Shown here: one piece after another, positions 1 to 16,515 of the stretch
How positions within the stretch are numbered: the stretch's first letter is position 1
How the letters are laid out: each line of letters opens with the position of its first letter
The notes under the pieces: model-generated
Databases searched by the model: none
Seen by the model: only the letters and a program-made list of their open reading frames with translations
Told to the model about the DNA's origin: nothing
NCBI GenBank assembly: GCA_036796695.1
Contig: DAIRCK010000012.1
Location: 8,524-72,523 of the forward strand
Source of the DNA: a bacterium
GTDB taxonomy: Bacteria > Hydrothermota > Tepidihabitantia > SM23-42 > JAOAFX01
DNA length: 64,000 nucleotides
Direction: 5' to 3'
Program-made: the position numbers and the translations under genes

Positions 1-1
1 C

Positions 2-733
2 GGACCACCAGGTGGAGAGTCACCCCTTTATGTCATAGAAACCGGTCAGGATTCTCTATCTCCATTCTGTCTCCATCGGGATGGGAAAATTACCTATACC
101 AACTACTCAGTGGATTATGCAAATAGCGAACTATCCTATGAACTTTCTTTCCTTGATCCGACCTTCCCATTCCATAAAATAAAGGGAACCGCATATTTTG
201 AAGGCACGAGCAATAGAAACTATGAACTCTGGATAAATGGTGTAAAGAAACATTCCTTTGTCGTGCGACCAAATCAGGCATATAATTTTGAGGCGCTCAT
301 TCCCAGGGAGTTATATCAAAATAATCGTCGGGTTACATTGACAATAAAGAATCCCAGCAATACTGGTGTCTGTCTTGCAGGCTTGAGTGTGTATCGGAAA
401 CCAGCAAAGACACCGGGTGGTGGTCCACAATCCCTGGCTGAAAGGAAGATTGATGACCTGATTTCAATAAATCCCAATCCCTTCAAAGGAAAGGTGGAAA
501 TCAGATACACGATGCAGGATACACGATACAGGATACGGGATAGAAGTTTGAAGATTTATGATGCAACAGGCAGATTGGTCAAACAATTTAACCATTTAAC
601 CAATTGTTCATTTAACCAGGTTGTGTGGGATGGAACTGATGATAACGGACAGCAACTACCTGATGGTGTCTATTTTATTCATCTGAAGACCGAGGAAAAG
701 GAAATCACGAAGAAGGCGGTTATGTTGCAGTAA
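2..733 (+). CDS. Secreted protein, 5'-partial (frame is open to the window edge), with a T9SS C-terminal sorting domain
   Basis: Frame 2 has no stop back to nt 2. The C-terminus ...NPNPF...IRY...LKIYDATGRLV...VWDGTDDNGQQLPDGVYFIHL...KKAVMLQ is a typical Por/T9SS CTD. Confidence 0.7.
   Translation, partial: GPPGGESPLYVIETGQDSLSPFCLHRDGKITYTNYSVDYANSELSYELSFLDPTFPFHKIKGTAYFEGTSNRNYELWINGVKKHSFVVRPNQAYNFEALIPRELYQNNRRVTLTIKNPSNTGVCLAGLSVYRKPAKTPGGGPQSLAERKIDDLISINPNPFKGKVEIRYTMQDTRYRIRDRSLKIYDATGRLVKQFNHLTNCSFNQVVWDGTDDNGQQLPDGVYFIHLKTEEKEITKKAVMLQ
504..545 (+). repeat. Six imperfect heptanucleotide repeats (atacacg/atgcagg/atacagg...) inside the T9SS CTD coding sequence
   Basis: The 7-nt periodicity is visible in the sequence. 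A 17-mer (ggatacacgatgcagga) is shared with the array at 4942-5039. Confidence 0.6.
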
Positions 734-740
734 AAAAGAT

Positions 741-770
741 GCGGGAGCGAAGTTAAGACTTCGCTCCCGC
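741..770 (+). promoter_or_regulatory. Perfect 13-bp-stem hairpin (gcgggagcgaagt/taag/acttcgctcccgc) between the upstream stop codon and the RBS of the next gene; no T-run, so likely an intercistronic stability or processing element or a partial terminator
   Basis: The inverted repeat is visible directly. It is followed immediately by AGGAGG and the ATG at 779. Confidence 0.5.
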
Positions 771-778
771 AGGAGGTT

Positions 779-2521
779 ATGAAAATGAGATCTTCATTCA
801 CTTTTTGTCTGTTGATTTGTCTCATCTCATCAGGAACCAGTATCACTTTTCGCAGGGTAGTAGATATTCCAGATGTGGGGGCGTGGCAAAGGGTCCTGGC
901 ATTTGATACTGACCATGATGGCAAACAAAACCTCATTTTTGACGAAAATCACCCTAATTATAGAGTGATTACCATTTGGGAATATGATAACTATGACCGG
1001 TATTTCTGCGAGGATACAGTTACCTATCCTTTGAATGGATTTATCCCAGTATTTGGTGTTGGTTATCTGGATACAGATTCATTGGTAGATATGGTTGGGA
1101 CTACTAACGGCCTCTGGCCGTATCCAATATATGTCTTTGAGTCGCCAACATATCATTCAAATCCAAAAAATATTGTCTGGCAGGATAGCTTATTTGGAAA
1201 CAATGGCGGTAGTTACATAACCGACCTTGACCAGGATGGGTTAAAAGAAATAATTATTGGATACGGGCAAGGCTGGACTCGGATGTATGAAAATGCTGGT
1301 GATAATCGGTATTCACTGGTCTGGCAAGATAAATCCTACGCTGTCGGGAATGTTATCAATGGTGATTTTGATTTAGACGGCAAAATTGAACTTATTCCTG
1401 GCGGTGACGGGTATGGGGAGGTGTGGGTCTGGGAATGCATCGGTAATAATCATTACCAACTGGTTTTTCAAGATACCCTCCCGTGGGTCAACAACTATGA
1501 TGTTTTTTCCGCCCATGATATGGATGGGAATGGTAAACCGGAATTTTTGTTTACTTCGGTGCATTATTCTCAGGGAAGAGCCTGGCTCTATCTGTATGAA
1601 ACGATTGGTGATAACAATTATGATTGGTGTCTTGTTGATTCAATGACTAATTTACCAATAAGTCTGGGTAGGCAAACGAGTGCGTGTGGTGATGTTGATG
1701 CTGATGGCAGGGAGGAAATTGTCTGGTCAACTTTTAACCAGTGGCATATTTATAAGGCAGTTGGTATTCATCAATATCAAAAAATTTATAGTAGCAGCTG
1801 GACAACCCATGAGTCTAAAATGATGAATGTTTGTGATTTGAATGGAAACGGTTATCCTGAAGTCATTGAGTCTTGGACAGTGTTATATAATACTGGTACA
1901 ACTATCTGGGAGATTGCGGGTGTGCATATTATCCAGCCGAATTATGGTTATATTTTGCATCCTGGAGAAGACTATCAAATTGCCTGGCAGAGATTTGACC
2001 CACCAGGTGCAGATTCATTTGCTTTATTCTTTTCTTTTGATAATGGCAATACCTATGATACAATTGCCTTGGGAATTCCAGGTAGTGATACTACCTATCA
2101 ATGGATTGTGCCCAATGTCATCTCTGACTCCTGCAAGATAATGATCTGGGCTTATGGGCCTCCAAGACCGGGTGAGCAACGACCCCGGGGCATTGTCTGG
2201 GATTTTGGTGATTTCAAGATTAGGCCGGGCTCAGATGTTGCTGAGACCCAATACCGACCAGCATATTATAACCTCAGGATTTCACCGAATCCAGTACGAA
2301 ATGAGAACCTGAGAATCCAGTATTCAGTGCCGAAATTATCAAAAGTGAAACTCGCCATTTATAACACCCTGGGTCAGTTAGAACAGGTGCTAATTGATAA
2401 AGATATGGCACCAGGAATTTATGAATTAAATCTGAGGCAAAATCTGCCAAATGGCATCCATTTTCTGCAATTGTCTGCAGATAAAAAGACAATCACTGAA
2501 AAGGTGGTGATAATAAGATGA
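779..2521 (+). CDS. FG-GAP (integrin-alpha-like beta-propeller) repeat protein with signal peptide and T9SS C-terminal domain, paralog A
   Basis: Repeated D-x-D-x-D-G motifs (DHDGKQNL, DLDQDGLKE, DFDLDGKIE, HDMDGNGKPE, GDVDADGREE, CDLNGNGYPE). The N-terminus is hydrophobic and the CTD reads ISPNPVRNENLRIQY...AIYNTLGQ. Confidence 0.8.
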   Translation: MKMRSSFTFCLLICLISSGTSITFRRVVDIPDVGAWQRVLAFDTDHDGKQNLIFDENHPNYRVITIWEYDNYDRYFCEDTVTYPLNGFIPVFGVGYLDTDSLVDMVGTTNGLWPYPIYVFESPTYHSNPKNIVWQDSLFGNNGGSYITDLDQDGLKEIIIGYGQGWTRMYENAGDNRYSLVWQDKSYAVGNVINGDFDLDGKIELIPGGDGYGEVWVWECIGNNHYQLVFQDTLPWVNNYDVFSAHDMDGNGKPEFLFTSVHYSQGRAWLYLYETIGDNNYDWCLVDSMTNLPISLGRQTSACGDVDADGREEIVWSTFNQWHIYKAVGIHQYQKIYSSSWTTHESKMMNVCDLNGNGYPEVIESWTVLYNTGTTIWEIAGVHIIQPNYGYILHPGEDYQIAWQRFDPPGADSFALFFSFDNGNTYDTIALGIPGSDTTYQWIVPNVISDSCKIMIWAYGPPRPGEQRPRGIVWDFGDFKIRPGSDVAETQYRPAYYNLRISPNPVRNENLRIQYSVPKLSKVKLAIYNTLGQLEQVLIDKDMAPGIYELNLRQNLPNGIHFLQLSADKKTITEKVVIIR

Positions 2522-5214
2522 AGATAATCATTGGATTTTTGGTATCTCTATTATTTTTAGAAATTGGGTTAAGCCTTGAAAATAATGCTTTTATCGTGGA
2601 CACAAACATTGTCTATTCTTTTGCCCGTTACCATCAGAAAAATCCCTGCATTGGGTTTGATGGTATGAATAGTCTTGTTGTCTGGGAGGATTATCGGGAT
2701 ACCACAGTAGATATCTATGGTGCGCGGATAACAGAATCAGGGATGGTTCTTGATCCTGCTGGAATACTGATTTCATATGCCCGCAATGACCAATATAAAC
2801 CTGCGGTTGCTTCTGGTCTGGGAAATTATCTGGTTGTCTGGGAAGACTCAAGAGGAGGTTCAGAGATTTATGGGGCACGGATCACATCCAGTGGTTTAGT
2901 CCTTGATACCGCTGGAATTGCTATCACATCTACACCAAATTCCCAGGTGCGACCTGCGGTTGCCTTTGATGGCACAAATTATTTTGTGGTCTGGCAGGAC
3001 AATCGGAGTGGTGTATCTTTTGATATCTATGGGGCAAGGGTCACTACAGAAGGTGTGGTCATTGATACTTCAGGGATAATGATTACTTCAGCGCCAAAGG
3101 ACCAGGAATCACCAGTGGTTGGTTTTGATGGGGTAAACTATTTTGTCATCTGGCAGGACTGGCGCAATGACCCAGGAACTTATACCAATTCTGATATTTA
3201 TGGTGCTCGGGTGACACAGTCAGGGGTTGTGCTTGATACTGGAGGAGTTCAAATTTGTGGTGCATTGGATAACCAATATTTGCCGCATTTAGATTTTGAT
3301 GGCACGAATTATCTGGTGGTATGGGAGGATTACCGAAGCGGGATATACTCAGATATCTATGGCACCCGGGTTACACCATCTGGAATGATTATTGATACCA
3401 ATGCCATTGCCATCTCTGTGGCTGAGAATTATCAGACTGCGCCCCGGGTTACCTATGCTGGGGATAACTACTTTGTCATCTGGGCAGACCAGCGCACAGG
3501 TTCATATCCGGATATTTACGGTGCACGGGTGAGCCCTTCTGGTGTAGTCCTTGACACTACCGGGATTAAGGTAACAGACCTTCCTTTTGCCCAATATATG
3601 CCTGCGATAGGCTTTAATCATAACTATTTTATTGCCCTGTGGCAGGACTTTCGGAATAGTGACCTTTCTGATATTTATGGGGCAAGGATAATGTTTACGG
3701 GAAATGTGATAGATACAGCCGGCATTCTCATCTCCACTGAGGCAAATTTGCAGGAAGAGCCCCAGGTTGCTTTTGATGGTACAAATTATCTCCTTGTGTG
3801 GCAGGATTGGCGCAATGATGCGGGTGACCGCAGGAATGCAGATATATATGGCATCAGAATTTCAGCAAGTGGTGCAATCCTTGATTCCGCTCCAATTGCC
3901 ATCTGCACTGCGATAAACAATCAGGTCCATCCGAGGATTGATTTTGATGGGATAAACTATCTTGTGGTCTGGGAGGATTGGCGTTATAGTCCTTTTGAGA
4001 ATAGTGATATTTATGGGGTTCGGGTCAGTCCTTCAGGTGTGATAATTGATTCGGTTGATATTTTAATCTCCTCTGCACCAAGAAATCAGAATACCCCATC
4101 AGTTTGTTTTGGGGGCACAAATTATCTTGTGGTCTGGAAGGATTGCCGAAATTACTATTATGGAGACATTTATGCCACGCGTGTAACAACCTCAGGAATT
4201 GTGCTTGATTCTGCAGGTATCCCCATTTCCACTGGAGGTTCTAAGGCAAATCCCGAGGTTTCTTATGATGGGACAAACTATTTTATAGTCTGGCAGCAGA
4301 AGGATTATATGGGTTGGGATGATATTTATGGCGCGCGGCTTAACCCGGGCGGGAATCTTATAGATACGCTCGCAAAACCAATATCAACTGCTCCTTATGA
4401 CCAGATAAACCCTTCCATTGCCTTTGATGGTGTGAATTATTTTATAGTATGGCTGGATGCCCGGGGATTTCCACCACCTGATACTGATATATACGGTGCA
4501 CGGGTCTCATCCACAGGGATTGTCCTTGACACCTCAGGAATACCCCTTGCTACTTCAAATTATAGCCAGCATAACCCGAGTGTGTTATGGGGTGGTGCAG
4601 ATTATCTGGTATTATACAGTGAATGGCGGTATACGCAGCCAGCCAATGGATGGGATATTTATGGTCTGAGAGTATCCCCTTCGGGCATAATCATTGATTC
4701 ATTTGCAATTACGAACAAACCTGGTGATCAGATATCGCCTGCCCTAACAAAAGGCCCTGGTGAGCAGATTTTGATTACCTATTCAGGTTATGCTGATTCG
4801 GTTAACAATCATATTGCAAGAACCCAGCGAATCTGGGTTGAATACTTTCCACCTGTGGGCACCAGCGAGAAGATTCAAAAGTTGCCAAACAAACTGATTG
4901 CAATATATCCGAATCCATTCAGAGAAAAATTGATAATCAGATACATGATACAGGATGCAGGATTTATAATACAGGATACACGATGCAGGAGTGAAGTACT
5001 CAGTAGCCAGTATCCAGTAGCCAGTATAAAGATTTATGATGTGGATGGTAGAATGGTTCGTGATTTTTCTCGGTTAACGGTAGTCGGTGAACGGTCAACG
5101 ATTCTCTGGGATGGAACTGATGATAATGGACAGCAACTACCTGATGGTGTCTATTTCTTAAAACTGAATGTCGGCAATGAAACGATCACAACGAAGGCGG
5201 TTCTGCTGAGATAG
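2518..5214 (+). CDS. Secreted protein with about 13 tandem ~50-aa PD40/TolB-like beta-propeller repeats (consensus DIYGARVT-SG-VLD--GI-I------Q--PAVAFDGTNY-VVW-D-R) and a T9SS C-terminal domain
   Basis: The repeat periodicity can be read directly from the translation. The start overlaps the upstream stop (ATGA). The CTD ends DGVYFLKL...KAVLLR. Confidence 0.75.
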   Translation: MKIIIGFLVSLLFLEIGLSLENNAFIVDTNIVYSFARYHQKNPCIGFDGMNSLVVWEDYRDTTVDIYGARITESGMVLDPAGILISYARNDQYKPAVASGLGNYLVVWEDSRGGSEIYGARITSSGLVLDTAGIAITSTPNSQVRPAVAFDGTNYFVVWQDNRSGVSFDIYGARVTTEGVVIDTSGIMITSAPKDQESPVVGFDGVNYFVIWQDWRNDPGTYTNSDIYGARVTQSGVVLDTGGVQICGALDNQYLPHLDFDGTNYLVVWEDYRSGIYSDIYGTRVTPSGMIIDTNAIAISVAENYQTAPRVTYAGDNYFVIWADQRTGSYPDIYGARVSPSGVVLDTTGIKVTDLPFAQYMPAIGFNHNYFIALWQDFRNSDLSDIYGARIMFTGNVIDTAGILISTEANLQEEPQVAFDGTNYLLVWQDWRNDAGDRRNADIYGIRISASGAILDSAPIAICTAINNQVHPRIDFDGINYLVVWEDWRYSPFENSDIYGVRVSPSGVIIDSVDILISSAPRNQNTPSVCFGGTNYLVVWKDCRNYYYGDIYATRVTTSGIVLDSAGIPISTGGSKANPEVSYDGTNYFIVWQQKDYMGWDDIYGARLNPGGNLIDTLAKPISTAPYDQINPSIAFDGVNYFIVWLDARGFPPPDTDIYGARVSSTGIVLDTSGIPLATSNYSQHNPSVLWGGADYLVLYSEWRYTQPANGWDIYGLRVSPSGIIIDSFAITNKPGDQISPALTKGPGEQILITYSGYADSVNNHIARTQRIWVEYFPPVGTSEKIQKLPNKLIAIYPNPFREKLIIRYMIQDAGFIIQDTRCRSEVLSSQYPVASIKIYDVDGRMVRDFSRLTVVGERSTILWDGTDDNGQQLPDGVYFLKLNVGNETITTKAVLLR
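4942..5039 (+). repeat. About 14 imperfect heptanucleotide repeats (atacagg/atgcagg/atacacg, then tagccag/tatccag) inside the CTD coding sequence of the PD40-like protein
   Basis: The 7-nt periodicity spans about 98 nt. It encodes the atypical insert MIQDAGFIIQDTRCRSEVLSSQYPVASIK between conserved CTD strands. Confidence 0.6.
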
Positions 5215-5227
5215 GTAGAATCTTTTT

Positions 5228-5253
5228 GGGGTGGGAGGTAAACCTCCCACCCC
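5228..5253 (+). promoter_or_regulatory. Hairpin (ggggtgggagg/taaa/cctcccacccc) between the stop of the upstream gene and the RBS of FG-GAP paralog B; positional analog of the hairpin at 741-770
   Basis: Perfect 11-bp inverted repeat, followed by GGGAGG and ATG ATG. Confidence 0.5.
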
Positions 5254-5261
5254 AGGGAGGA

Positions 5262-6995
5262 ATGATGAGACTCTTAATAATTGTGTTTGTATTATGTGGC
5301 TTTATTTCTTTTGGTGTGTGCATCAGTTTTCGCAAGACTGCTGAAATTCCAAGTGGTGCGATGGATAAAGCCTTTGGTTTTGATACTGACCACGATGGCA
5401 AACAAAATTTAGTATTAAGTTTTAATGGAATACAATTTTGGGAGCACATTGGTTTTGACCGATATATCTTAGAAGATACCGCCACACCATCGTGCTTATG
5501 TGACATAGGTTCTTCAGACTCAGATTCATTAACCGATATGGTCGGCAACATAAACGGTTTATGGCCCTATCCAATATATGTCTATGAATCGGCCACTTAT
5601 AATTCCAATCCCACGATTATCGTCTGGCAGGATAGCGGATTTATGAACATTGGTAACAGTTACATTACTGACCTTGACCAGGATGGGTTAAAAGAAATAC
5701 TCTTTGGATACTCTCCGATAGAACCTCCAAGATGGCGCACCTGTGTTTATGAAAATATTGGTGATAATCAGTATTCTCTGGTCTGGCAGGATACGACCTA
5801 TGCTATCTGGAGTGCTATCAATGGTGATTTTGACCTGGATGGTCAAACTGAATTTATCGCTGGTAGTGGCGGGTCTGGTTGGGTTTGGGTCTGGGAATGC
5901 GTAGGTAATAATCATTACCAGGTGGTTTTTCGAGATACCCTCCCGTGGCCTAACAACACTGATGTTTTTTCCGCCCATGATATGGATGGTAATGGTAAAC
6001 CGGAATTTTTGTTTACTTCAGTGGATTATTTTCATGGAAGAGCCTGGCTTTATCTGTATGAAACGATTGGTGATAACAACTATGATTTCTTTTTAGTTGA
6101 TTCAATTACAGGGATTCCTGGTAGTATGTTCTATCAAACCAGCATTTGCGGTGACATTGATGCTGATGGTAGGGAAGAAATCGTCTGGTCAACTTTTAAT
6201 CAATGGCATATTTATAAGGCAATTGGTATTCATCAATATCAAAAAATTTATAGCAGTGCCTGGACACTCCATGATTATAAAGTGATGAATGTCTGTGATT
6301 TGAATGGAAACGGGTATCCTGAGGTCATTGAGGCCTGGTCCCAGAATGGAATACCATCTATTGAAGGGACAACCATCTGGGAGATTGAGGGTGTGCATAT
6401 TATCCAGCCGAATTATGGTTATATTTTACATCCTGGAGAAGACTATCAAATTGCCTGGCAGAGATTTAACCCGCCCGGTGCAGATTCATTTGCCTTATTC
6501 TTTTCTTTTGATAATGGCAATACCTATGATACAATTGCCTTGGGAATTCCAGGTAGTGATACTACCTATCAATGGATTGTGCCCAATGTCATCTCTGACT
6601 CCTGCAAGATAATGATCTGGGCTTATGGGCCTCCAAGACCGGGTGAGCAACGACCCCGGGGCATTGTCTGGGATTTTGGTGATTTCAAGATTAGGCCGGG
6701 CTCAGATGTTGCTGAGACCCAATACCGACCAGCATATTATAACCTCAGGATTTCACCGAATCCAGTGCGAAATGAGAACCTGAGAATCCAGTATTCAGTG
6801 CCGAAATCATCAAAAGTGAGACTCGCGATTTATAATACTTTGGGTCAGTTAGAGGAGATGCTGGTGGATAAAGAGATAGCACCAGGGATTTATGAAATTG
6901 GATTAATAAATCCCTTGACAGACGGTGTCTATTTTGTAAAATTAACTACTGATGGAAAAATAATTACCAAAAAATGTGTGATATTAAAGAATTAA
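5262..6995 (+). CDS. FG-GAP repeat protein with T9SS C-terminal domain, paralog B of 779-2521
   Basis: Same architecture as paralog A. Nucleotides about 6379-6823 are almost identical to 1893-2340. The start was chosen at the ATG after the RBS; the ORF track begins at 5226. Confidence 0.8.
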   Translation: MMRLLIIVFVLCGFISFGVCISFRKTAEIPSGAMDKAFGFDTDHDGKQNLVLSFNGIQFWEHIGFDRYILEDTATPSCLCDIGSSDSDSLTDMVGNINGLWPYPIYVYESATYNSNPTIIVWQDSGFMNIGNSYITDLDQDGLKEILFGYSPIEPPRWRTCVYENIGDNQYSLVWQDTTYAIWSAINGDFDLDGQTEFIAGSGGSGWVWVWECVGNNHYQVVFRDTLPWPNNTDVFSAHDMDGNGKPEFLFTSVDYFHGRAWLYLYETIGDNNYDFFLVDSITGIPGSMFYQTSICGDIDADGREEIVWSTFNQWHIYKAIGIHQYQKIYSSAWTLHDYKVMNVCDLNGNGYPEVIEAWSQNGIPSIEGTTIWEIEGVHIIQPNYGYILHPGEDYQIAWQRFNPPGADSFALFFSFDNGNTYDTIALGIPGSDTTYQWIVPNVISDSCKIMIWAYGPPRPGEQRPRGIVWDFGDFKIRPGSDVAETQYRPAYYNLRISPNPVRNENLRIQYSVPKSSKVRLAIYNTLGQLEEMLVDKEIAPGIYEIGLINPLTDGVYFVKLTTDGKIITKKCVILKN

Positions 6996-7016
6996 AAAAA
7001 CAGAAAATTCCTCTTA

Positions 7017-7056
7017 CTCCCCCTTTTCCAAAGGGGGAGACAAGGGGATTTTTTTT
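7017..7056 (+). terminator. Rho-independent terminator (ctccccc...gggggag stem plus T8 run) after the T9SS cassette
   Basis: A GC-rich inverted repeat is followed by tttttttt. Confidence 0.6.
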
Positions 7057-7084
7057 CTTCAACCGAATGACCATTGACGCATCA

Positions 7085-7308
7085 CGATACGAGCAGCGAA
7101 ACCGTATAACGATAGACGATAAAAATAGGGACTTCAGTCCTGAGAAATTTGAGGCTAAACTCTCTACTCCATATTTTTTCTCGCTACTTGCTACTCTCTA
7201 CTCGCTACTCTCTACAGAGTTAATAATTTTGAATTTGTTTCGGATTTCGTGCTTCGGATTTCGGATTTAACTCTGATACGGGACGCGACACCGTATAACG
7301 ATTAACGA
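7085..7308. repeat. Two approximately 35-bp direct repeats (gatacgagcagcgaaaccgtataacgatagacgat and gatacgggacgcgacaccgtataacgattaacgat) flanking about 155 bp of low-complexity tandem repeats (tactcgctactctc x2, ttcggat x4) and a small hairpin
   Basis: Seen directly in the sequence. The region is noncoding in any plausible frame. Confidence 0.45.
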
Positions 7309-8330
7309 TCTTTTTCTCCATCGGTTCTGCCAATCGCCCTAATTATATGCCTCAATTCCTCTATCAATATTTTAAAACCATCAATGGTCAAGGATTGGGG
7401 ACCATCTGACAATGCCTTATCTGGATTATTATGAACCTCAACCATTATTCCATCTGCACCTGCGGCAATCGCTGCCCTGGAAAGGGGCAAGACCATATCC
7501 CTTTTTCCTGAAGCATGGCTCGGGTCTACAATTACGGGCAGATGTGATACTTTCTTTAATTCAGGAATACTACTAATGTCAAGGGTAAAACGGGTGAAAT
7601 CACTAAATGTCCTTATCCCCCTTTCGCAAAGAATGACATTATAATTACCTTCAGACATTATATATTCTGCAGCAAGGAGAAATTCTTGGATTGTTGATGC
7701 CATTCCCCTTTTTAATAAAATTGGTTTTTTGCTCAATCCTGCCTTTTTTAATAGCGAATAATTCTGCATATTCCTGGCACCAATCTGGATAACATCAACA
7801 TACTCTTCAACAAGAGGAAATGTCTCGGTATCAATCGCCTCTGAGACAACTGGCAAACCCGTTTCTTTCTTTGCTTTAGCAAGGATCTTTAGTCCTTTCT
7901 CACCAAGACCCTGGAATGTGTATGGTGAGGTCCTTGGCTTGAATGCCCCTCCCCTGAGCATATCTGCACCAAAACTCTTTACTGCCCTGGCAATCTCAAT
8001 GGTCTGTTTTTCAGACTCAACTGCGCAGGGCCCAGCAATGATTACTGGTTTTCTATCTCCAATTATTACATCACCAACCTTTATCTTTGTATCATCCGGT
8101 TTCATCTCCCTGCTGGTCAGTTTATAAGGCTTGGTAACGACAATCACATCTATCACACCATCAAGCCCCTCAAGCCTATTTTTATCAACCATATCTTTAT
8201 TTCCTGTTATACCGATTGCTACACGCTGGGCACCCTTTATAGGGTGTGGTTTCAAACCCATCTGTTTTATAACCCTGCACACATTTTTAATCTGTTCATC
8301 AGTTGCATCTTTATGCATCACAACGAGCAT
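7302..8330 (-). CDS. aroF: 3-deoxy-7-phosphoheptulonate (DAHP) synthase, type I-beta with N-terminal regulatory domain
   Basis: The core resembles the Thermotoga-type DAHPS/KDO8PS family (…IIAGPCAVES…KPRTSPY-FQG…). It sits at the 3' end of the aromatic supraoperon. Confidence 0.85.
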   Translation of the reverse strand: MLVVMHKDATDEQIKNVCRVIKQMGLKPHPIKGAQRVAIGITGNKDMVDKNRLEGLDGVIDVIVVTKPYKLTSREMKPDDTKIKVGDVIIGDRKPVIIAGPCAVESEKQTIEIARAVKSFGADMLRGGAFKPRTSPYTFQGLGEKGLKILAKAKKETGLPVVSEAIDTETFPLVEEYVDVIQIGARNMQNYSLLKKAGLSKKPILLKRGMASTIQEFLLAAEYIMSEGNYNVILCERGIRTFSDFTRFTLDISSIPELKKVSHLPVIVDPSHASGKRDMVLPLSRAAIAAGADGIMVEVHNNPDKALSDGPQSLTIDGFKILIEELRHIIRAIGRTDGEKDR

Positions 8331-8341
8331 ATTACCTCCTT

Positions 8342-9112
8342 TTATTCCCTTATTGTTGCCTCTTTAAATTTTTTTAGCAACAATTTTAAATCTTCTTTAT
8401 TTCTTATTGCCTCAATTATTCTGCTACCAATTACAACACCATCTGCAACCTGGCACAATCTCTTAACCTGCCCAGGATTTGAAATACCAAATCCTACGAC
8501 AACAGGCTTTTTTACAATCTTTTTAACCTTTCTTATAAATAAGGGCAGGGTTTCAGGAAGGTTTTTCCTGACCCCGGTCGTCCCTGTCACACTCACACAA
8601 TATACAAAACCACTACTCATCTTGCCAATCAATCCTATCCTTTCTCTATTCGATGTCGGCGCAATCAATTGTATTAAATCTATTTTATAATTATCAGCAA
8701 ATTTTTTAATCAAGCCTGACTCCTCAACCACGATGTCTGGCACGATCAATCCTGAAATACCGATTTGAGAAACCTTTTTAAAAAATTTTTTAATACCGAA
8801 TGCAAGGACTGGGTTCAAATAGGTCATAATGACGAGTGGTGTTTCAATCTCTATCTTTGCGATTTCCTCAAGTATCTCATTAAGTGATACCTTATTCTTC
8901 AATGCGATATTTGATGCGTACTGTATCGTCTTTCCATCTGCAATCGGGTCTGAAAAAGGAATTCCTATCTCAATAATGTCTGCGTATAAACTGCTCTCTT
9001 TTATATATTTGATTGATTCTTTAATCCCTGGATAACCTGCAGTAAGGTATACAATCAATGCAGATTCATTATTTTTTTTAAGATATTCAAACTTTTTATC
9101 AATCTTATTCAT
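8342..9112 (-). CDS. trpA: Tryptophan synthase alpha chain
   Basis: The N-terminal ...[10 protein letters not shown]... and [12 protein letters not shown] motifs are typical of TrpA. It overlaps trpB by 8 nt. Confidence 0.9.
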
Positions 9113-10289
9113 AAAACTCCTCTACAATCTCGAGGTCCTTATCACCCCTTCCTGAAAGGTTTACAATGATTATCTTTTCTGGGTCCATCTTCTTTGCCTC
9201 ATTGATTGCAACATAAACTGCATGGGCGCTCTCTAATGCTGGTATTATCCCTTCAGTCTCAGTGAGAATTTTAAATGCCTTGAGTGCCTGTTTATCTGTG
9301 CAAGAAGTGTACTGGACACGACCCCTAAATTTTAAAAATGAATGCTCAGGACCGACCCCTGGATAATCAAGGCCTGGAGCAATGGAATGGGTTGGACTTA
9401 TCTGCCCATCATCATTCTGGAGCACATAACTCATTGCCCCATGGAGCACACCAGGCTTGCCACAGGAGAGTGTAGCAGAATGTGCCTTAGAATGAATTCC
9501 CATGCCTCCAGCCTCAACACCGAGCATTTTTATTTCTGTATCAAGGAAGGGATGAAAAAATCCTATCGCATTACTACCACCACCAACACAGGCAATGAGG
9601 AGGTCAGGCATCCTTCCTTCTATCTTCAATATCTGTTTTTTCGTCTCTTTACCAATGATTGATTGAAAATCGCGCACCATCATTGGATATGGATGTGGAC
9701 CAACGACCGAGCCGATACAATAATGAGTCGTCCTCACATTTGTGACCCAATCCCTTATCGCCTCATTTATCGCATCCTTCAAGGTCTGTGTTCCTGAATC
9801 AACTGGTATAACTTCTGCACCGAGGAGTCTCATCCTTAATACATTCATCCTTTGCCTCTGAACATCCTTTTTTCCCATATATACCACACATTTCAAACCG
9901 AATAAGGCACAGGCAGTTGCAGTTGCTACACCATGCTGTCCAGCACCGGTCTCTGCAATTATCCTATTTTTCTTCATCATCTTTGCAAGAAGGACCTGGC
10001 CAATCGTATTATTTATCTTGTGCGCACCAGTATGGAGGAGGTCTTCCCTTTTAAAATAAATCCTTGCACCTTTTAATCGCTCTGATAGATTCCTTGCATA
10101 GTATAATGGAGTTGGTCTTCCTGCATAATTTCTTAAATAATGATTCAGTTCTCTTTTAAAATCAGGATTGTTCTTAAGACGATTATATGCATCTTCAAGT
10201 TCAATTAATGCCGGCATCAAAGTCTCAGGGACGAATCTGCCACCAAAACTGCCGAAATACCCATTTTTGTCAGGTTTTTTATAAGCCAT
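9105..10289 (-). CDS. trpB: Tryptophan synthase beta chain
   Basis: [13 protein letters not shown]... and HTGAHKINN... with the PLP lysine. The start was taken at the internal MAYKK; the ORF track extends to 10376 in overlap with aroQ. Confidence 0.9.
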
Positions 10290-10719
10290 CTCCTCCCCCA
10301 TTAATAAAGTATTCAAGTGCAAGGATATATCCATACCAGCCAAGCCCTGTAATCTGACCAATGCATACTGGTGCAATCAAACTTTTGTGTCGGAAAGGCT
10401 CGCGACTGTAAATATTGCTGATATGGACCTCTATTGCCTTTATACCAACCCCCTCAATCGCATCCCTTATTGCTACAGAGGTGTGTGTGTATGCACCAGG
10501 GTTTATTATGAGTCCAGAATACTCATCAGAATTATGTATCATCTCTATTATCCTTGATTCAGAATTTGATTGGTATATGTCAACCTGGACCCCTCTTTTC
10601 TCTGCATAATCAATAATCTTTTTATTGATCTCATCAAGTGATAACCTGCCATATACCTCTGGATTCCTCTTTCCCAAAAGATTGAGGTTCGGACCATGGA
10701 TTAAAAGAATTTTTTGCAT
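10279..10719 (-). CDS. aroQ: 3-dehydroquinate dehydratase, type II
   Basis: The 146-aa product reads [20 protein letters not shown]...HISNI-SRE-FRH, the type II DHQase signature. Confidence 0.9.
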
Positions 10720-12251
10720 AAAACCTCCTTTATCTTCACTCTACCAATCTTTTCAAAGATTGGCATCCTTATCTTTTCTCGTTTCATCTTTTTATCCTGT
10801 AAAATAAATCCCTTTATATCCTGTCTTTTAATAAATCCTGGCAGTTCTGCAGGCAAAGAATATTCTTTTAATAGTTCAATAACTTCAACAGGTATTCTAT
10901 TTTTATTAAAAATACATATCTCCTGGACCATCCCTATTGAGACTGCCTCACCATGTGAAAATCTCTTGTATTTGCCCATTTTTTCAATGATGTGCCCAAT
11001 CGTATGGCCAAAATTGAGGATTTCCCTTATCCCTTTCTCTTCAGTCTCATCATCTTTTATTATCCTACCTTTAATCATTACACATTCTTTTATAATCCTG
11101 AAAAGTGTTGCAGGATCGCGTTCCATTATCAATCCCTTTTTTTCTTTAAGGGTCCTAAATAGTTCCTCTGAGCTGATTATCCCATACTTTATAACCTCAG
11201 CAATACCATTGGAAAATTCTCTATCAGGAAGGGTCATAATCTTTTTAATATCACATACTACACATTCTGGTTGATAGAATGTTCCGAGCATATTCTTTCC
11301 ATATTTTGTATTTACTCCATTCTTACCACCTAACGCAGCATCAACCTGGCAGAGCAGGGTAGTTGGAATATATACAAGCTTGCAACCCCTTTTGAATGTG
11401 GATGCGACAAAACCAGCAATATCAGTAATCACACCACCACCAAGACCGAGTATTATATCCTGCCTTTGAAAATTTATCTTGAATAGGTATTCATAGATAC
11501 TCTCTACAGTTTTAATATTTTTGTATGCCTCACCATCGGGTATTATAAGATAATTAACTTCGTTATCCTGCCTTTTCAATGTCTTTGCCAAATCATCAAG
11601 GTAGAGTGCACCAACAAGTGGATTGGTTATTATAAAAATCCTTTTCTTTTTAAATAGAAGATGGCGATTAGAATCAAATATGATTATAACTGGATAGACC
11701 CTTGATTTTGTATGGATCATTATAGATTCACTCTGGTCAGGATAATCTATCTTCTTTAATTCCAATCTCTTTATTATTTCCCTGGCTACCAATTCCGGTG
11801 CCTTCTCTGTTGTATCAATCTTTATCTCAGCAAAATCATATATTCCTTTTCTCTGCTCCAGAAGATTAAAAAAATCTTTTTTTGATTTGACCAATGGCCT
11901 TGAACCATCCATTTTTATCCTCTTTAATAGAGTCTCTAAATTTGCATAAAGCTGGATAACCCTGCCTGTTTTTTTCAATATTTCACGATTCTTCTCATTC
12001 TTAACAATCCCTCCACCTGTCGCAATAACTACATTCTTCAATCCTTTTATTTTTTCCAGAACCCAGTGCTCTCTTTTCCGAAAATATTCTTCACCTTCCT
12101 TCTCAAAGATTTCTTTTATTGATCTCTGTTCCGCAAGTTCAATCATTCGGTCTGTGGAAAGATAACCAAAATTTAAATTTTCAGCAAGGATTCTACCGAT
12201 TGTATCCTTGCCAGTGCCCATAAATCCTATTAAGATTATGTTTTCAGACAT
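10701..12251 (-). CDS. aroKB: Bifunctional shikimate kinase (N-terminal) / 3-dehydroquinate synthase (C-terminal)
   Basis: The N-terminal P-loop GFMGTGKDTIG is AroK. The C-terminus (...GGGVITDIAGFVAS...LVYIPTTLL-QVDAALGGKNGVN...) is AroB. Confidence 0.85.
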   Translation of the reverse strand: MSENIILIGFMGTGKDTIGRILAENLNFGYLSTDRMIELAEQRSIKEIFEKEGEEYFRKREHWVLEKIKGLKNVVIATGGGIVKNEKNREILKKTGRVIQLYANLETLLKRIKMDGSRPLVKSKKDFFNLLEQRKGIYDFAEIKIDTTEKAPELVAREIIKRLELKKIDYPDQSESIMIHTKSRVYPVIIIFDSNRHLLFKKKRIFIITNPLVGALYLDDLAKTLKRQDNEVNYLIIPDGEAYKNIKTVESIYEYLFKINFQRQDIILGLGGGVITDIAGFVASTFKRGCKLVYIPTTLLCQVDAALGGKNGVNTKYGKNMLGTFYQPECVVCDIKKIMTLPDREFSNGIAEVIKYGIISSEELFRTLKEKKGLIMERDPATLFRIIKECVMIKGRIIKDDETEEKGIREILNFGHTIGHIIEKMGKYKRFSHGEAVSIGMVQEICIFNKNRIPVEVIELLKEYSLPAELPGFIKRQDIKGFILQDKKMKREKIRMPIFEKIGRVKIKEVLCKKFF

Positions 12252-13308
12252 CTTTAATCCTTTTTAAATATTGTTGATAATTCTTTTTCATATCCAGTAT
12301 ATTATCACCGCCAAATTTTTCACAAAATGCCAGGGCAAGGACATAGGCAAGCATTGATTCTGCAATTACACTGATCGCTTCAACTGCACAGACATCGGCT
12401 CTAAAGACTGGTGCAGGACAAGGTCTTTTATTCTTTATATCAAAAGATTTTAACGGATTCTGGAGTGTAGGGATCGGTTTTATATACAACCTTATAAAAA
12501 TCCTTTCTCCATTGCTCATACCACCCTCAATCCCACCTGCATTATTGGTCTTATGATAAAATCCCATTTTTTTATCATAAAATATCTTATCATGAACAGC
12601 AGAGCCATAATGCATTGATGAAAAGATCGCCTCTCCAATTTCAATCCCTTTTACTGAAGGTATTGATAGCATCGCCATACCAATCATACCATCAAGCCTC
12701 TTATCAAATTGTGTATAACTTCCAAGACCTGGACAGACACCATCAGCATAAACCTCAACAATCCCACCGAGTGTATCACCCCTTTGTTTTGCCTGGATTA
12801 TTAATCTTTTTATCTTATTTCTATCCTTTTCCTTTCCAATCTGTCTCACCTGTGAACTTATCGCTATATTAAATTCTTTAAGCAGGAGTTTAAACACCGC
12901 ACCTGCTGCAACCCTTGATACAGTCTCCCGTGCCGATGCCCTTTCAAGGACATCCTGGATATCTAAAAAACCAAATTTCAAAAGACCTGCAAAGTCTGCA
13001 TGGCCAGGTCTGGGAATGGTTATTGAATCTTTAGTTTTTTGTGATAAGAATTCATCCCTGCGATAGTCCTTATTTTTAATAAAGAGCGTTATAGGTGAAC
13101 CGATGGTTTTGCCCATCCTCACACCTGAAAGGATTTCAACAGGCTCTTCTTCCAGTTCCATCCTTTTGCTCCTGCCCATTCCCTGCTTTCGCCTCTTCAA
13201 TTCTTGTCTTATAAAATCAGGGCTGATCTTTAATCCTGCAGGGATTCCATCAATGATTACTGACATACCCTGATTATGTGATTCACCACCTGTTAACATC
13301 CTTATCAT
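12244..13308 (-). CDS. aroC: Chorismate synthase
   Basis: LTGGESHNQG....GRSKRMELEEE... and GGMSNGE motifs. Confidence 0.9.
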   Translation of the reverse strand: MIRMLTGGESHNQGMSVIIDGIPAGLKISPDFIRQELKRRKQGMGRSKRMELEEEPVEILSGVRMGKTIGSPITLFIKNKDYRRDEFLSQKTKDSITIPRPGHADFAGLLKFGFLDIQDVLERASARETVSRVAAGAVFKLLLKEFNIAISSQVRQIGKEKDRNKIKRLIIQAKQRGDTLGGIVEVYADGVCPGLGSYTQFDKRLDGMIGMAMLSIPSVKGIEIGEAIFSSMHYGSAVHDKIFYDKKMGFYHKTNNAGGIEGGMSNGERIFIRLYIKPIPTLQNPLKSFDIKNKRPCPAPVFRADVCAVEAISVIAESMLAYVLALAFCEKFGGDNILDMKKNYQQYLKRIKDV

Positions 13309-13309
13309 T

Positions 13310-14077
13310 CTACACCTCCTTTAATGCTATCTTCATTAAATTGACCGGTCTATATCCAGTCCAGAGTTTGAATGAATACGCTGCCTGGTGAATTAGCATA
13401 GAGATACCATCTATCAACTTTATTTTCTTTGATTTTGATAATTTAAAACGATAATTTATATCATAATACACACTACCGGGTTTTAAAAACGGAATGACCA
13501 TATCCTGGATATCAACAGATGTGCCATTTATAACGATATCCATATTTGACGCATATTGAGAGATTTGTGAAAAATGGATTTTCTTTGCAGGATAGATATG
13601 CAAAATAGATTCAATCTTAGATTCAGTCCTATTAGTAATAAAGACTTCTTTGGGATTTTTTTGACCGAGGAGATATAGACAGGCACGAACAACACCACCA
13701 GCACCAATTATGAGAACCTTTTTATCTTTCAGTCCAATTTTGTGTTCTTTTAAAGAATAAGCAAATCCATAGACATCGGTATTATCACCAATTATCTTCT
13801 TATCCTTTATAACTACTGTATTAACTGCCCCAATCTTTCTGGCGACTGGTGTAAGTTCATTTAAATATTCCATAATCTTAGTCTTATATGGATTTGTGAT
13901 ATTAAAACCAGTAAATCCAAGTTTTATCAATTTATGGAAAACCTCTCCAAGGTCATCAGGTGGAATAGAGAGGAGAAAATAGATACCCTTTATTTTCAAT
14001 CTTCTAAATGCAAAATTATGGATCTTTGGCGAGAGTGTATATTTTAGAGGATAACCGATCACACCAGTGAGGAACAT
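13310..14077 (-). CDS. aroE: Shikimate dehydrogenase
   Basis: GVIGYPLKYTLSP-IHN-AF...NVT-PYK...GAGG-VRA. Confidence 0.85.
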   Translation of the reverse strand: MFLTGVIGYPLKYTLSPKIHNFAFRRLKIKGIYFLLSIPPDDLGEVFHKLIKLGFTGFNITNPYKTKIMEYLNELTPVARKIGAVNTVVIKDKKIIGDNTDVYGFAYSLKEHKIGLKDKKVLIIGAGGVVRACLYLLGQKNPKEVFITNRTESKIESILHIYPAKKIHFSQISQYASNMDIVINGTSVDIQDMVIPFLKPGSVYYDINYRFKLSKSKKIKLIDGISMLIHQAAYSFKLWTGYRPVNLMKIALKEV

Positions 14078-14676
14078 CGCCGCACCTCTTTTATAAATTC
14101 CCGAATTTTTTCTGGGTCTTTTTTACCTGGTGAGCTTTCCACACCTGAACATACATCAACACCATAAGGTCTTAGCATCTTTATCATTGTGCCAACATTC
14201 TTCTCATTTAATCCACCGGCAACGATAAACCTACCTCCAATGGTTTTTATTATCTTCCAATCAAATGTCCTGCCACTCCCTTCACCAGGGTCAAATAGAT
14301 ATGCTGAAACAGAATATCCAGCCATCTCTTTGATGATACCAACTGGATTTGAACTATCATCAATTTTGATCCTCTTTATAATCCGCACACCTTTTATAAG
14401 CCTGCAATATTCGGGTGGTTCAGATCCGTGTAATTGAACGACGTCTATCCCGGTTAAACTGATTATCTTGTTTACCACATCAAGCCGCTCATTTTTAAAT
14501 ACACCAACCGTTGTAATAAATGGTGGTAATTTCTCAATGATATTCTTTGCTATTTCGGGTTCAATATTTCTTGGTGAAGGGGCGAAGATAAAACCAAGCG
14601 CATCGGCGCCAAAATTAGATACGATGAGTCCATCCTCAAGATTGGTAATGCCGCAGACCTTTATTTTAATACTCAT
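14059..14676 (-). CDS. trpF: Phosphoribosylanthranilate isomerase
   Basis: The start MSIKIKVCGIT...DALGFIF was chosen; the ORF track extends 14 codons upstream. Confidence 0.85.
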   Translation of the reverse strand: MSIKIKVCGITNLEDGLIVSNFGADALGFIFAPSPRNIEPEIAKNIIEKLPPFITTVGVFKNERLDVVNKIISLTGIDVVQLHGSEPPEYCRLIKGVRIIKRIKIDDSSNPVGIIKEMAGYSVSAYLFDPGEGSGRTFDWKIIKTIGGRFIVAGGLNEKNVGTMIKMLRPYGVDVCSGVESSPGKKDPEKIREFIKEVRRCSSLV

Positions 14677-15754
14677 CAAGCCACCTGGTTCCTTTTTGAA
14701 AAACTTTTTTAAATGCATCCCTTTTCCCTTTTTTCACAATTTTCATTAGTGCATCCATACACATTGTTAAATTTTTATATAAATCAAGGGTATAAGGATT
14801 TAGCGATTGGATTTCATAATAAAGTTCTGGATTTTCCTTTATCACACTATTGGTTGTCTCCATCTGGGCATTGAATGTTGTACTGGCAATTCTTTTCAAA
14901 TCTTTAAATTCGTAGCCACTATCCATAAGATTTTTTATAAAAAGAACATTTATAAAATGGGAAAGACCGAGAACATATGAAACGAGTCTGTCGTGCTCAT
15001 CAAATGAAAGATTAATGATTCTAACTGCGGTATTCTTGAAAATATTCATTATCATACCATTCGCCTCAGGTGAACCACAATCACAGAGACAGACAACTTT
15101 ATCACTGAGGGTCCGACAGGATGGACCAAACATTGGATGGATGGATGTAATTTTAATATTTTTCTCAATTGCTTTTTTAATTGCTGGAATTATGTGGCTC
15201 TTCACACTTGCAATATCACAGACAACCGCATTGCAATTTAGTTCTGTAAGGGTTTCAATTATATCGGGGACAATAGCAAGCGGTGTAGAAATGACCACCA
15301 GTGATTTTCCTTTTAATCCAGATTTTATATCTTTATAATAACTAAAACCACAACGCCCGGGCAGTTTTATATCATTTATTGCTACCCTGTGCCCTTGATT
15401 CTGCAGGAAATAAGCAAACCATCTGCCCATTCCACCCAGTCCACCAACAATGAGCACATCCTCCTTTTTCCCGGAATAAACTGAATAATGCAATCTCTCC
15501 TGCTGGATACGGGATTGCTCAATGATTTTAGTAATGAGTGTCCGTGTAAAATTTATATCAAGACCAATACCTTCCGCATATCTAATTCCATTTTCAATCA
15601 CGCTCTTTTCTACACTCCAATCCTGGAGTGCAATTCCCATTTTTTTCTTTTCTCTGCCGATCGCATCGCTCAATAACATTCGCTTCTGGATTAGGTTCAA
15701 TATCTTCTGGTCGGTCTTTTTTATTTTCATTCTGAGAAGTTTTAATCGATCCAT
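14666..15754 (-). CDS. tyrA: Bifunctional chorismate mutase (AroQ class, N-terminal) / prephenate dehydrogenase
   Basis: The N-terminal roughly 90-aa CM helix bundle (LRMKIKKTDQKILNLIQKRMLLSDAIG) is followed by the NAD-binding GGLGGMG PDH domain. Confidence 0.8.
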   Translation of the reverse strand: MDRLKLLRMKIKKTDQKILNLIQKRMLLSDAIGREKKKMGIALQDWSVEKSVIENGIRYAEGIGLDINFTRTLITKIIEQSRIQQERLHYSVYSGKKEDVLIVGGLGGMGRWFAYFLQNQGHRVAINDIKLPGRCGFSYYKDIKSGLKGKSLVVISTPLAIVPDIIETLTELNCNAVVCDIASVKSHIIPAIKKAIEKNIKITSIHPMFGPSCRTLSDKVVCLCDCGSPEANGMIMNIFKNTAVRIINLSFDEHDRLVSYVLGLSHFINVLFIKNLMDSGYEFKDLKRIASTTFNAQMETTNSVIKENPELYYEIQSLNPYTLDLYKNLTMCMDALMKIVKKGKRDAFKKVFQKGTRWLDEY

Positions 15755-16515
15755 TTCAATTCCTTTATTTTTTCTGCCATATCATCTGCCTTCAATATAG
15801 AAGTACCAACGAGTATCCCATCAAAACCAGCATCCTTCAATCTCCTCACATCCTCTGCCTTTTTAATTCCACTCTCACTCACGGTATAATATCGCTCGGG
15901 AACCGATTCTATCAAATTTAGAGAAATATTGATGTCGACTTCAAAATTATTTAGATTCCGATTATTAATACCGATTATCTCGGTATCTGTATTAAATGCC
16001 TTTTTTAAATCATCGATTGTATGGACTTCAACGATCGTCGCCATACCAAGTTTATGGGCAAGTCGGACAAATTCTTTCAATCTTTCAGGGCTCAATATAC
16101 AGGCAATGAGTAGTATGGCATCAGCAAAAATTCCACAGGATTCATAAATCTGATATTCATCAATGATAAAGTCTTTCCTCAACACAGGTAGTTTTGTGAA
16201 TTTTTTTACATTTTGTATATCTTCATTTCTTCCGCTGAAAAATTTTTCATTCGTTACAACCGATATGCCATCAGCACCGGATTTTTCATAGATAAAAACA
16301 ATCTTCTCTATGTCCAATCCGTTTATAATCGCTCCAGTTGATGGTGATGACCTTTTTATTTCAGCGATGAGTGCGATTTGCCCATTTTTGAAAATCTTTT
16401 TAAAATCGCGCCTTTCTTTGTTCTCGGTTTTTAACAGTTCTTTAAGTGGCTTCAAACCCTTTTTTTTATCTATCTCATTTTTTGTGTTCTCAATTATCAC
16501 TTTTAGTATGTCCAT
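15742..16515 (-). CDS. trpC: Indole-3-glycerol phosphate synthase
   Basis: IAEIKRSSPS-G...FI-DEYQIYE....GADAILLI...NNRNL. Confidence 0.9.
   Translation of the reverse strand: MDILKVIIENTKNEIDKKKGLKPLKELLKTENKERRDFKKIFKNGQIALIAEIKRSSPSTGAIINGLDIEKIVFIYEKSGADGISVVTNEKFFSGRNEDIQNVKKFTKLPVLRKDFIIDEYQIYESCGIFADAILLIACILSPERLKEFVRLAHKLGMATIVEVHTIDDLKKAFNTDTEIIGINNRNLNNFEVDINISLNLIESVPERYYTVSESGIKKAEDVRRLKDAGFDGILVGTSILKADDMAEKIKELKWID

Follow-up and report, generated by a model that had tools for sequence, protein, structure and literature searches.

We analysed a 64,000-nt stretch of contig DAIRCK010000012.1 (the window), which derives from an uncultured bacterium of the candidate division WOR-3, and focused on the four same-strand genes in its first 7060 nt. 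These genes, arranged in the order G1-FGA-G3-FGB, each encode a protein ending in a C-terminal sorting domain (CTD) of type IX secretion systems (T9SS), and two of them, FGA and FGB, are paralogs built on FG-GAP repeats (FG genes in the following). Considering all lines of evidence, it is very probable that FGA and FGB are old paralogs shaped by repeated gene conversion and carried on recombining modules. According to this scenario, the two integrin-alpha-like genes would have exchanged sequence repeatedly by homologous, mostly non-reciprocal recombination. The youngest event would have homogenised 465 nt (1895-2359 in FGA, 6366-6830 in FGB), comprising the Ig-like domain and the first sorting-domain strands, and earlier events would have left blocks of intermediate divergence, while separate histories would have been retained by the propeller blades at the N-terminus and by the distal part of the sorting domain. 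Block-wise exchange within the family would also occur between loci and between related genomes, and the order G1-FGA-G3-FGB would represent one state of recombining modules, each consisting of the CTD end of an upstream gene, a hairpin and an FG gene.

In a global alignment, FGA and FGB share 77% nucleotide identity overall, with a very uneven distribution along the genes. Identity ranges between 37 and 83% in the 5′ region (37–77% in the first 500 nt) and reaches 87–92% between FGA 1424-1600 and FGB 5886-6062 (offset 4462), 83–95% in a third block at FGA 1694-1840 and 93–100% at FGA 1895-2340. The final 150 nt are only about 57% identical, and the final 160 nt belong to the most divergent stretches of the pair. 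The 465-nt tract itself contains 12 mismatches, includes a perfect run of 272 nt (2024-2295 = 6495-6766) and ends about 160 nt short of the stop codon. The structural model described below predicts that it encodes everything from the final propeller strand, through the entire Ig-like domain and the linker, to the first strands of the CTD. This region represents the best-conserved part of the family (~75% identity between genomes compared to 55–65% for the N-terminal part) and hence offers the best substrate for homologous pairing; we infer that sequence homology in this best-conserved part drove the exchange. An earlier reading of the stretch, made without database searches (hereafter the sequence-only reading), had proposed a mosaic of this kind, which the windowed alignment bears out, as divergence along the pair is not uniform. 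Some of its details have to be revised: the near-identical block of FGB had been placed at 6379-6823, which is 13–17 nt out of register (correctly 6366-6830), and an internal block of ~160 bp, described as nearly identical, reaches only 87–92%.

Synonymous differences trace the same mosaic as total identity. Synonymous divergence (dS, Nei-Gojobori), calculated by amino acid segment, spans 40-fold along the two genes: it amounts to 1.27 for aa 1-210, 0.25 for aa 211-280, 0.70 for aa 281-372, 0.08 for the tract (aa 373-527) and 1.47 for the last 53 codons (aa 528-580), with both ends saturated. In the tract core (aa 411-510), dS is as low as 0.03 and the nonsynonymous divergence (dN) is zero. 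The converted part thus lies inside the genes and does not represent their 3′ halves, as had been assumed. Overall, 90 consecutive third-codon positions are identical, compared to a maximum of 45 in shuffled sequences (0/20,000 shuffles reached 90); with same-amino-acid codons alone, the run of 90 compares to a shuffle maximum of 65. In segment trees (neighbour-joining, 500 bootstraps) including 39 homologs from the protein search, FGA and FGB grouped exclusively with each other in 500/500 replicates based on aa 373-527 and in 392/500 based on aa 211-280; the same grouping was recovered in 100/500 replicates with aa 281-372, in 43/500 with aa 1-210 and in 28/500 with aa 528-580. The N-terminal region of FGB shows 64–68% identity to proteins of other genomes, compared to 57% to FGA. 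Based on the saturated ends and the closer relationship of the FGB N-terminus to other genomes, FGA and FGB are therefore old paralogs whose near-identity is secondary. These results support a signature of gene conversion rather than of recent duplication, and the different age classes of the tracts (dS of 0.03, 0.25, 0.7 and > 1.2) fit repeated events. Accordingly, of the two processes put forward by the sequence-only reading, gene conversion between the tandem paralogs is backed by the dS contrast, the shuffles and the segment bootstraps, whereas a recent duplication is contradicted by the same saturated ends and N-terminal affinities. A diversity-generating retroelement was also considered and rejected, as the 12 tract mismatches involve all four bases and are not adenine-specific; no reverse transcriptase was found among the annotated neighbours.

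Comparison with related loci showed that different parts of FGA and FGB have their orthologous counterparts in one and the same gene. At locus L023 (a 5.9-kb contig), the ortholog of G3 is ~92% identical at the nucleotide level, uniformly up to about window position 4950, followed by only 53% in the last 60 codons. The single FG gene upstream of it matches FGA at 90–97% from ~2105 to the stop codon but only at 43–70%, with saturated third positions, 5′ of ~2105. The backbone orthologous with L023 hence spans ~2105 to ~4950. Another sample contributed a 117-kb contig, whose first 12.6 kb (locus L024) comprise a frameshifted FG gene, the same 4-nt ATGA overlap and an ortholog of G3 (89% identity). 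Here, the FG gene shows 87–98% identity to FGB over 5757-6350 and 87–97% to FGA over 2368-2521. We counted informative sites in the triplet made up of FGA (A), FGB (B) and Y, the FG gene of L024. Between 1301 and 1894, A=B, A=Y and B=Y were supported by 24, 11 and 89 sites, respectively; the counts changed to 131, 4 and 7 in the tract (1895-2359) and to 6, 47 and 5 at 2360-2521 (chi-square p = 6e-69, five segments tested). The triplets with L023 and L020 gave p = 5e-33 and 3e-17. Compared to the single FG gene of the relatives, the orthologous propeller is therefore located in FGB and the orthologous distal end in FGA, with the shared tract in between. Duplication followed by patch-wise overwriting could account for this arrangement, as could excision and re-integration via the homology of the tract and of the CTD/spacer region; the data fit both.

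A second FG gene downstream of G3 (FGB in the window) is absent in L002, L023 and L024. In L002, which stems from a more distant metagenome-assembled genome (MAG), the order G1-FG-G3 is followed by a different CTD gene of 1,494 aa. Locus L022 harbours four tandem FG-GAP paralogs alternating with short CTD proteins, and the high-identity blocks (up to 96–97%) differ by pair. As these paralogs are mosaic as well, mosaicism is a general property of this FG-GAP family. With respect to timing, the orthologous L023 backbone from ~2105 onwards indicates that the tract is younger than the split from L023 and that the FGA locus is the native location of its 3′ half. In this half (2101-2359), only 13 A=B sites differ from L023, and it is contiguous with the orthologous end of FGA, which suggests that FGA was probably the donor and FGB the recipient in the last event, at least over 2101-2359. 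The tract may instead have a history of crossover plus rearrangement. As a separate observation, the G3 ortholog of L024 (L024:2625-4130) has lost ~1.1 kb (window 3000-4100) between 53-aa repeats; the deletion is in-frame and repeat-mediated and leaves a product of 501 aa.

The homology between the two halves of the cluster does not end at the FG genes. Starting in the distal CTD of the upstream gene, it crosses the spacer without interruption, extends into the FG gene (626-2425 compared to 5107-6896, nucleotide level) and includes a 67-nt block with 88% identity (621-687 compared to 5102-5168). In WOR-3 loci, a CTD gene of the same orientation regularly lies upstream of the FG gene; this CTD gene can be G1-like, G3-like or short. 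The combination of CTD protein, hairpin and FG gene is thus a real recurrent module and not the result of a simple duplication of G1 plus FGA. The suggestion of the sequence-only reading that a two-gene unit had been duplicated holds for the continuous homology from the CTD end into the FG gene and for the recurrence of the module; it fails for the bodies of G1 and G3, which belong to different families. G1 and G3 are not near-duplicates either: only their CTDs align (43% amino acid identity), while the bodies consist of a BNR_2 domain and of 53-aa repeats, respectively.

Both spacers upstream of the FG genes contain a GC-rich hairpin (Table 1). Perfect GC-rich hairpins of 9–17 bp were found in 18/19 folded spacers between CTD genes and FG genes (the window pair and L002, L003, L005, L008, L010-L013, L015, L018 and L020-L023). 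Their position is constant, their sequences are unrelated, and a U-tract is mostly absent. Such a hairpin could act as an attenuator or as an mRNA-stabilising or processing element. An Rfam scan of positions 1-8000 did not reveal any match. At L024:705-821, a remnant of a sorting-domain end (VVWDGTDDNGQQLPNGIYF...LLK-stop) together with a hairpin is located upstream of the FG gene, with no intact upstream open reading frame (ORF), which suggests that the distal CTD, the hairpin and the FG gene are able to travel together as a unit.

A further feature of these loci is a set of heptanucleotide arrays. Within the window, period-7 arrays with a Tandem Repeats Finder (TRF) score ≥ 41 are confined to this locus, and tandem repeats in 452 kb of WOR-3 loci most often have a period of 7. 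Most arrays are positioned 39–87 codons before the stop of CTD genes, in sorting-domain loops or pre-CTD linkers, and some in nearby spacers. They are 70–89% matched, and 22/30 distinct arrays are located inside long ORFs, all of them frame-keeping; three heptads encode seven amino acids, e.g. QDTRYRI. Comparable arrays also occur in L005, L011-L013, L015-L019 and L022-L024. In G3, the array loop is predicted to be disordered (predicted local distance difference test, pLDDT, < 50 at aa 815-829), and its position coincides with the loss of orthology to the G3 of L023. A test for 7-residue periodicity in 263 homologs returned one match, the test being too strict for arrays this short; the TRF scan of the nucleotide sequences is more informative here. 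Cyanobacteria harbour heptanucleotide tandem repeats known as short tandemly repeated repetitive (STRR) sequences. The WOR-3 arrays resemble them in being short arrays of 7-nt period scattered through the genome; they differ in that they lie in frame in sorting-domain loops of secreted proteins, belong to another phylum and use variable heptamers. Between FGB and the convergent gene for 3-deoxy-D-arabino-heptulosonate-7-phosphate (DAHP) synthase, we additionally observed a 35-nt direct repeat (7086-7120 and 7275-7309; 83% identical, spacing 189 nt), whose second copy has a 30-nt match of 93% in the spacer after G3 of L023.

Other histories could in principle produce a near-identical block within a diverged gene pair. 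One of them is a recent whole-gene tandem duplication, after which the propeller and distal CTD diverged quickly and the middle of the gene was held under strong purifying selection. The best database match of the complete FGA propeller is indeed FGB (66%), and since aa 1-210 of FGA are about equidistant from all homologs, a fast-evolving copy is conceivable. However, selection on the protein cannot erase synonymous differences, yet dS varies from 0.03 to 1.47 within this one pair, and both the propeller of FGB and the CTD end of FGA are closer (87–98% at the nucleotide level) to other genomes than to the sister paralog, so that we give this history hardly any credence. The tract might instead have been imported independently into both copies by allelic exchange with other strains (transformation or horizontal transfer). 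Exchange between genomes is evident, as the G3 genes of the window, L023 and L024 are ~90% identical, yet their FG genes are patchworks. Nevertheless, the same 465 nt would have to be acquired twice with the same end points, the nearest outside sequence is only 92–98% identical to the tract, and exchange within the genome is the simpler explanation for 99.6% identity between neighbours separated by 4.5 kb; double import is thus very unlikely. Programmed surface variation would imply that cassettes of heptamer array, CTD end, hairpin and FG gene are shuffled and that slippage of the array switches the sorting signal in and out of frame. Period-7 arrays 39–87 codons before the stop of many CTD genes, the break of G3 orthology at its array, the CTD-end remnant with hairpin upstream of the L024 FG gene and the conservation of the hairpin across modules would all be in line with such a system. 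The imperfect arrays (70–89%) should, however, slip poorly, those in long ORFs (22/30) are all in frame, and their predicted disordered loops tolerate insertions; moreover, no recombinase or invertase was found near the cluster among the annotated genes, and dN/dS is ~0.23. We consider programmed variation very unlikely. A related idea, which we put forward as doubtful at best, is a portable cassette of heptad array, distal CTD, stop, hairpin and FG gene that recombines into the CTD end of any upstream cargo gene, with the Ig/CTD tract letting propellers swap and array slippage possibly toggling the sorting signal. If this were true, cassette exchange would lead to combinatorial variation of T9SS-displayed surface propellers.

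Several points weigh against repeated conversion between old paralogs, or against parts of this interpretation. The sequence derives from a short-read metagenome, the 272-nt perfect run is longer than the k-mers, and the merging of bubbles could have inflated an identity of 98–99% to 100%. Each of L023, L024 and L002 carries one FG gene beside G3, and a 31-nt piece of the tract had no match in the metagenome-contig collection, i.e. there was no independent tandem pair; a 23-nt family-wide piece found two distant relatives only. The pair could thus be an assembly artefact, in which strain variants were falsely joined in tandem or similar copies were collapsed to identity in the tract. This appears unlikely to us, as G3 and FGB are flanked alike on two contigs of different length (71,213 and 78,183 nt) and the window extends 1,310 nt beyond the contig from the Joint Genome Institute (JGI). 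In addition, the tract edges are graded, with scattered single differences instead of abrupt perfect identity, each of the two copies has unique flanks that were found separately in independent samples, and, as in other modules, a separate hairpin and ribosome-binding site are present at the G3-FGB junction. Furthermore, the direction from FGA to FGB is deduced from just two related contigs, and the A=B sequence at 1895-2100 is matched by neither relative (L023, L024), so that either an earlier event or one or more additional donors have to be invoked. With regard to secretion, the sorting domain is the one ground for proposing that a T9SS may export the four proteins: none of the machinery genes (SprA/Sov, PorV, PorU, PorK-N) is present among the annotated genes of the 64-kb window, and we found no paper linking T9SS and WOR-3.

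The C-terminal T9SS type A domains of G1, FGA, G3 and FGB passed the curated cut-offs of both Pfam (PF18962, 31.5–38.7 bits across the four proteins; cut-off 27) and NCBIfam (TIGR04183, 31.9–40.9 bits; cut-off 23), in agreement with the earlier description of four consecutive co-directional genes with such domains; the positions given for the two FG genes likewise match the ORF listing. Together, the four genes form an operon-like cluster. Hydrophobic N-terminal helices, as expected for Sec signals, are predicted at aa 4-18 of FGA and aa 2-14 of G3, and the putative signal peptides of FGB and G1 were judged by eye from their N-termini. FG-GAP_3 was detected with 65.2 bits in FGA and 60.2 bits in FGB (cut-off 26.9). 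An AlphaFold2 (AF2) model of FGA (75-sequence alignment, mean pLDDT 89.3) predicts a signal helix at aa 4-18, a beta-propeller from aa 24 to about aa 380, a beta-sandwich at aa 382-481, a low-confidence linker at aa 485-491 and a sorting-domain sandwich at aa 498-579. In Foldseek searches, the best PDB fold matches of this model were integrin alpha ectodomains (E ~5e-12). The beta-sandwich gave a sub-threshold match to the Kre9/KNH Ig-like family (E = 0.003). Like the integrin alpha head, the modelled FGA combines a 7-bladed FG-GAP propeller with a following Ig-like (‘thigh’) domain; in contrast to integrins, to which its sequence identity is only 9–13%, FGA is bacterial and carries a T9SS sorting domain. 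A PDB sequence search returned nothing significant for G1, FGA or G3. The JGI annotation places the start of FGA at 785 instead of 779, and because this start lies 6 nt downstream, an exact-sequence look-up of the FGA protein found no match.

The repeats of G3 follow the consensus FDGTNYLVVW.D.R...DIYGARV...G.VLD, and its AF2 model (pLDDT 89.8) shows ~14 four-stranded blades, which we read as two propellers from the matches of the model to double-propeller folds. The top match was PorZ (5m11, E 3.4e-13), and the GH74 structure 6p2k (ranks 4 and 6) was the next double-propeller match. PorZ and GH74 enzymes consist of two 7-bladed propellers in tandem, and PorZ and G3 both end in a T9SS CTD. G3, however, belongs to a distinct and very large 53-aa-repeat family (> 6,000 database matches from WOR-3, Edwardsbacteria, Eisenbacteria, Verrucomicrobia and Myxococcota), which is uncharacterised. 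We rejected G3 as a PorZ ortholog, as NF052228 scored 15.3 bits (cut-off 260) on the CTD only and the likeness is architectural. The sequence-only reading had called G3 PD40-like, but the PD40 model had no match at E ≤ 0.01, and the repeats form a separate 53-aa family. G1 (989 aa) consists of a putative signal peptide, a BNR_2 sialidase-like propeller (41.4 bits, cut-off 31.4) and the T9SS type A CTD. The cluster is thus predicted to encode one sialidase-like, two integrin-like and one double propeller, all of them exported. Judging from these predicted folds, cell-surface binding or a glycan-related activity is the most likely role, and we infer that the proteins are surface-displayed binding modules. 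The sequence-only reading had likened the array to variable surface or adhesin loci. Gene-wide dN/dS in the divergent segments of FGA and FGB is ~0.23, which indicates purifying rather than diversifying selection.

Table 1. Coordinates of features in the G1-FGA-G3-FGB cluster (window positions).
Feature	Position	Strand	Remarks
G1 3′ end, last 243 codons	1..733	+	full gene 989 aa = L001:5247-8216
Heptanucleotide array GATACAG x5.6	504..542	+	in frame in G1 CTD; TRF, motif enrichment
GC-rich hairpin, 14 bp	740..771	+	G1 stop to FGA ribosome-binding site; −27.3 kcal/mol, z = −7.6
FGA	779..2521	+	predicted signal peptide and 7-bladed FG-GAP propeller resembling integrin alpha, then Ig-like beta-sandwich and T9SS type A CTD; domain scans, AF2 model
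Older exchanged block, copy A	1409..1618	+	counterpart 5871-6080; dS 0.25; FGA+FGB pair in 392/500 bootstraps
Latest conversion tract, copy A (aa 373-527)	1895..2359	+	perfect core 2024-2295
Distal CTD of FGA	2360..2521	+	87–97% nt identity to FG genes of L023/L024; ~57–67% to FGB
G3	2518..5214	+	898 aa; ~14 x 53-aa repeats, read as two beta-propellers; T9SS type A CTD; 4-nt overlap (ATGA) of its start with the FGA stop
Heptanucleotide arrays GATACAG x7.3 and CAGTAGC x3.7	4940..5026	+	in frame in G3 CTD loop; TRF
GC-rich hairpin, core 5228-5253	5222..5259	+	G3 stop to FGB ribosome-binding site; −32.7 kcal/mol, z = −5.4
FGB	5262..6995	+	FGA paralog, domain architecture as FGA; ORF listing, domain scans
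FGB propeller segment	5757..6350	+	87–98% to the single FG gene upstream of G3 in L024
Latest conversion tract, copy B	6366..6830	+	perfect core 6495-6766; offset 4471
Non-coding spacer after FGB	6996..7301	.	arrays 7180-7215 and 7238-7268

In a GTDB-wide scan, the nearest genomes were WOR-3/Stahlbacteria MAGs, whose proteins share 55–59% identity with FGA and 61–64% with FGB as query; the phylum WOR-3 is currently named Caldifarciminota at NCBI. By an exact-protein look-up of G3, we identified a 71-kb JGI metagenome contig (L001), which shows no mismatch to the window over an overlap of 15,214 nt and reaches 7.5 kb further upstream. On this contig, G1 is complete and preceded by a 65-aa ORF and by divergently transcribed UbiB and TonB-receptor genes; the array, whose extension upstream of the window had been left as a question, therefore does not continue there. 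Downstream, the cluster faces a convergent aromatic amino acid biosynthesis operon. This long co-directional operon (7302-22344, minus strand) comprises DAHP synthase, trpA, trpB, aroQ, an aroK-aroB fusion gene (516 aa), aroC, aroE, trpF and chorismate mutase/prephenate dehydrogenase, in this order. Two more T9SS type A CTD genes are located outside the cluster (44572-47826 and ~22725-23015, both on the minus strand), one of which encodes a 1,084-aa protein with weak FG-GAP repeats. The window additionally harbours a gene for an IS200/IS605-type Y1 transposase (PF01797; 37500-38162, minus strand) and two genes for proteins with a spermine/spermidine-synthase domain (713 and 811 aa; 23922-26063, minus strand, and 34665-37100, plus strand), which are ~10 kb apart in opposite orientation.

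RecA-dependent gene conversion is known to drive the concerted evolution of duplicated bacterial genes such as tufA/tufB in Salmonella, and pilE/pilS and vlsE represent silent-cassette systems. The FGA/FGB pair shares with these systems a near-identical tract, including synonymous sites, between diverged paralogs and the incongruent phylogenies of tract and flanks. In contrast to pilE/pilS and vlsE, there is no dedicated silent-cassette archive here and no sign of programmed switching at high frequency, and FGA and FGB both look intact and, judging from their sequences, expressed. The mechanism is thus ordinary concerted evolution by gene conversion, i.e. textbook biology.

The nearest documented parallel among T9SS cargo genes comes from Porphyromonas gingivalis, in which shared adhesin-coding blocks of kgp, rgpA and hagA recombine, resulting in domain mosaics independent of strain phylogeny (PMC5266723, PMC9328147). 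The parallels comprise T9SS-type secreted surface proteins (predicted as such here), near-identical internal or C-terminal blocks and recombination among paralogs as well as between strains. While those genes belong to Bacteroidota and encode adhesin domains of gingipains, the genes described here are from WOR-3, combine an FG-GAP propeller with an Ig-like domain, form tandem paralogs 4.5 kb apart and are known from sequence alone. In the literature, we found no paper on T9SS plus gene conversion.

For the annotation of this family, these results caution against regarding FGA and FGB as products of a recent duplication, and identical blocks like their shared tract are spots where metagenome assemblies need validation at the read level. 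If they hold up, the hairpins and the in-frame heptad arrays at the orthology breakpoint could point to a specific mechanism of module exchange. Overall, the findings document gene conversion in the almost unstudied phylum WOR-3 and reveal that T9SS-type sorting domains and the module of CTD protein, hairpin and FG-GAP propeller are abundant in this group.

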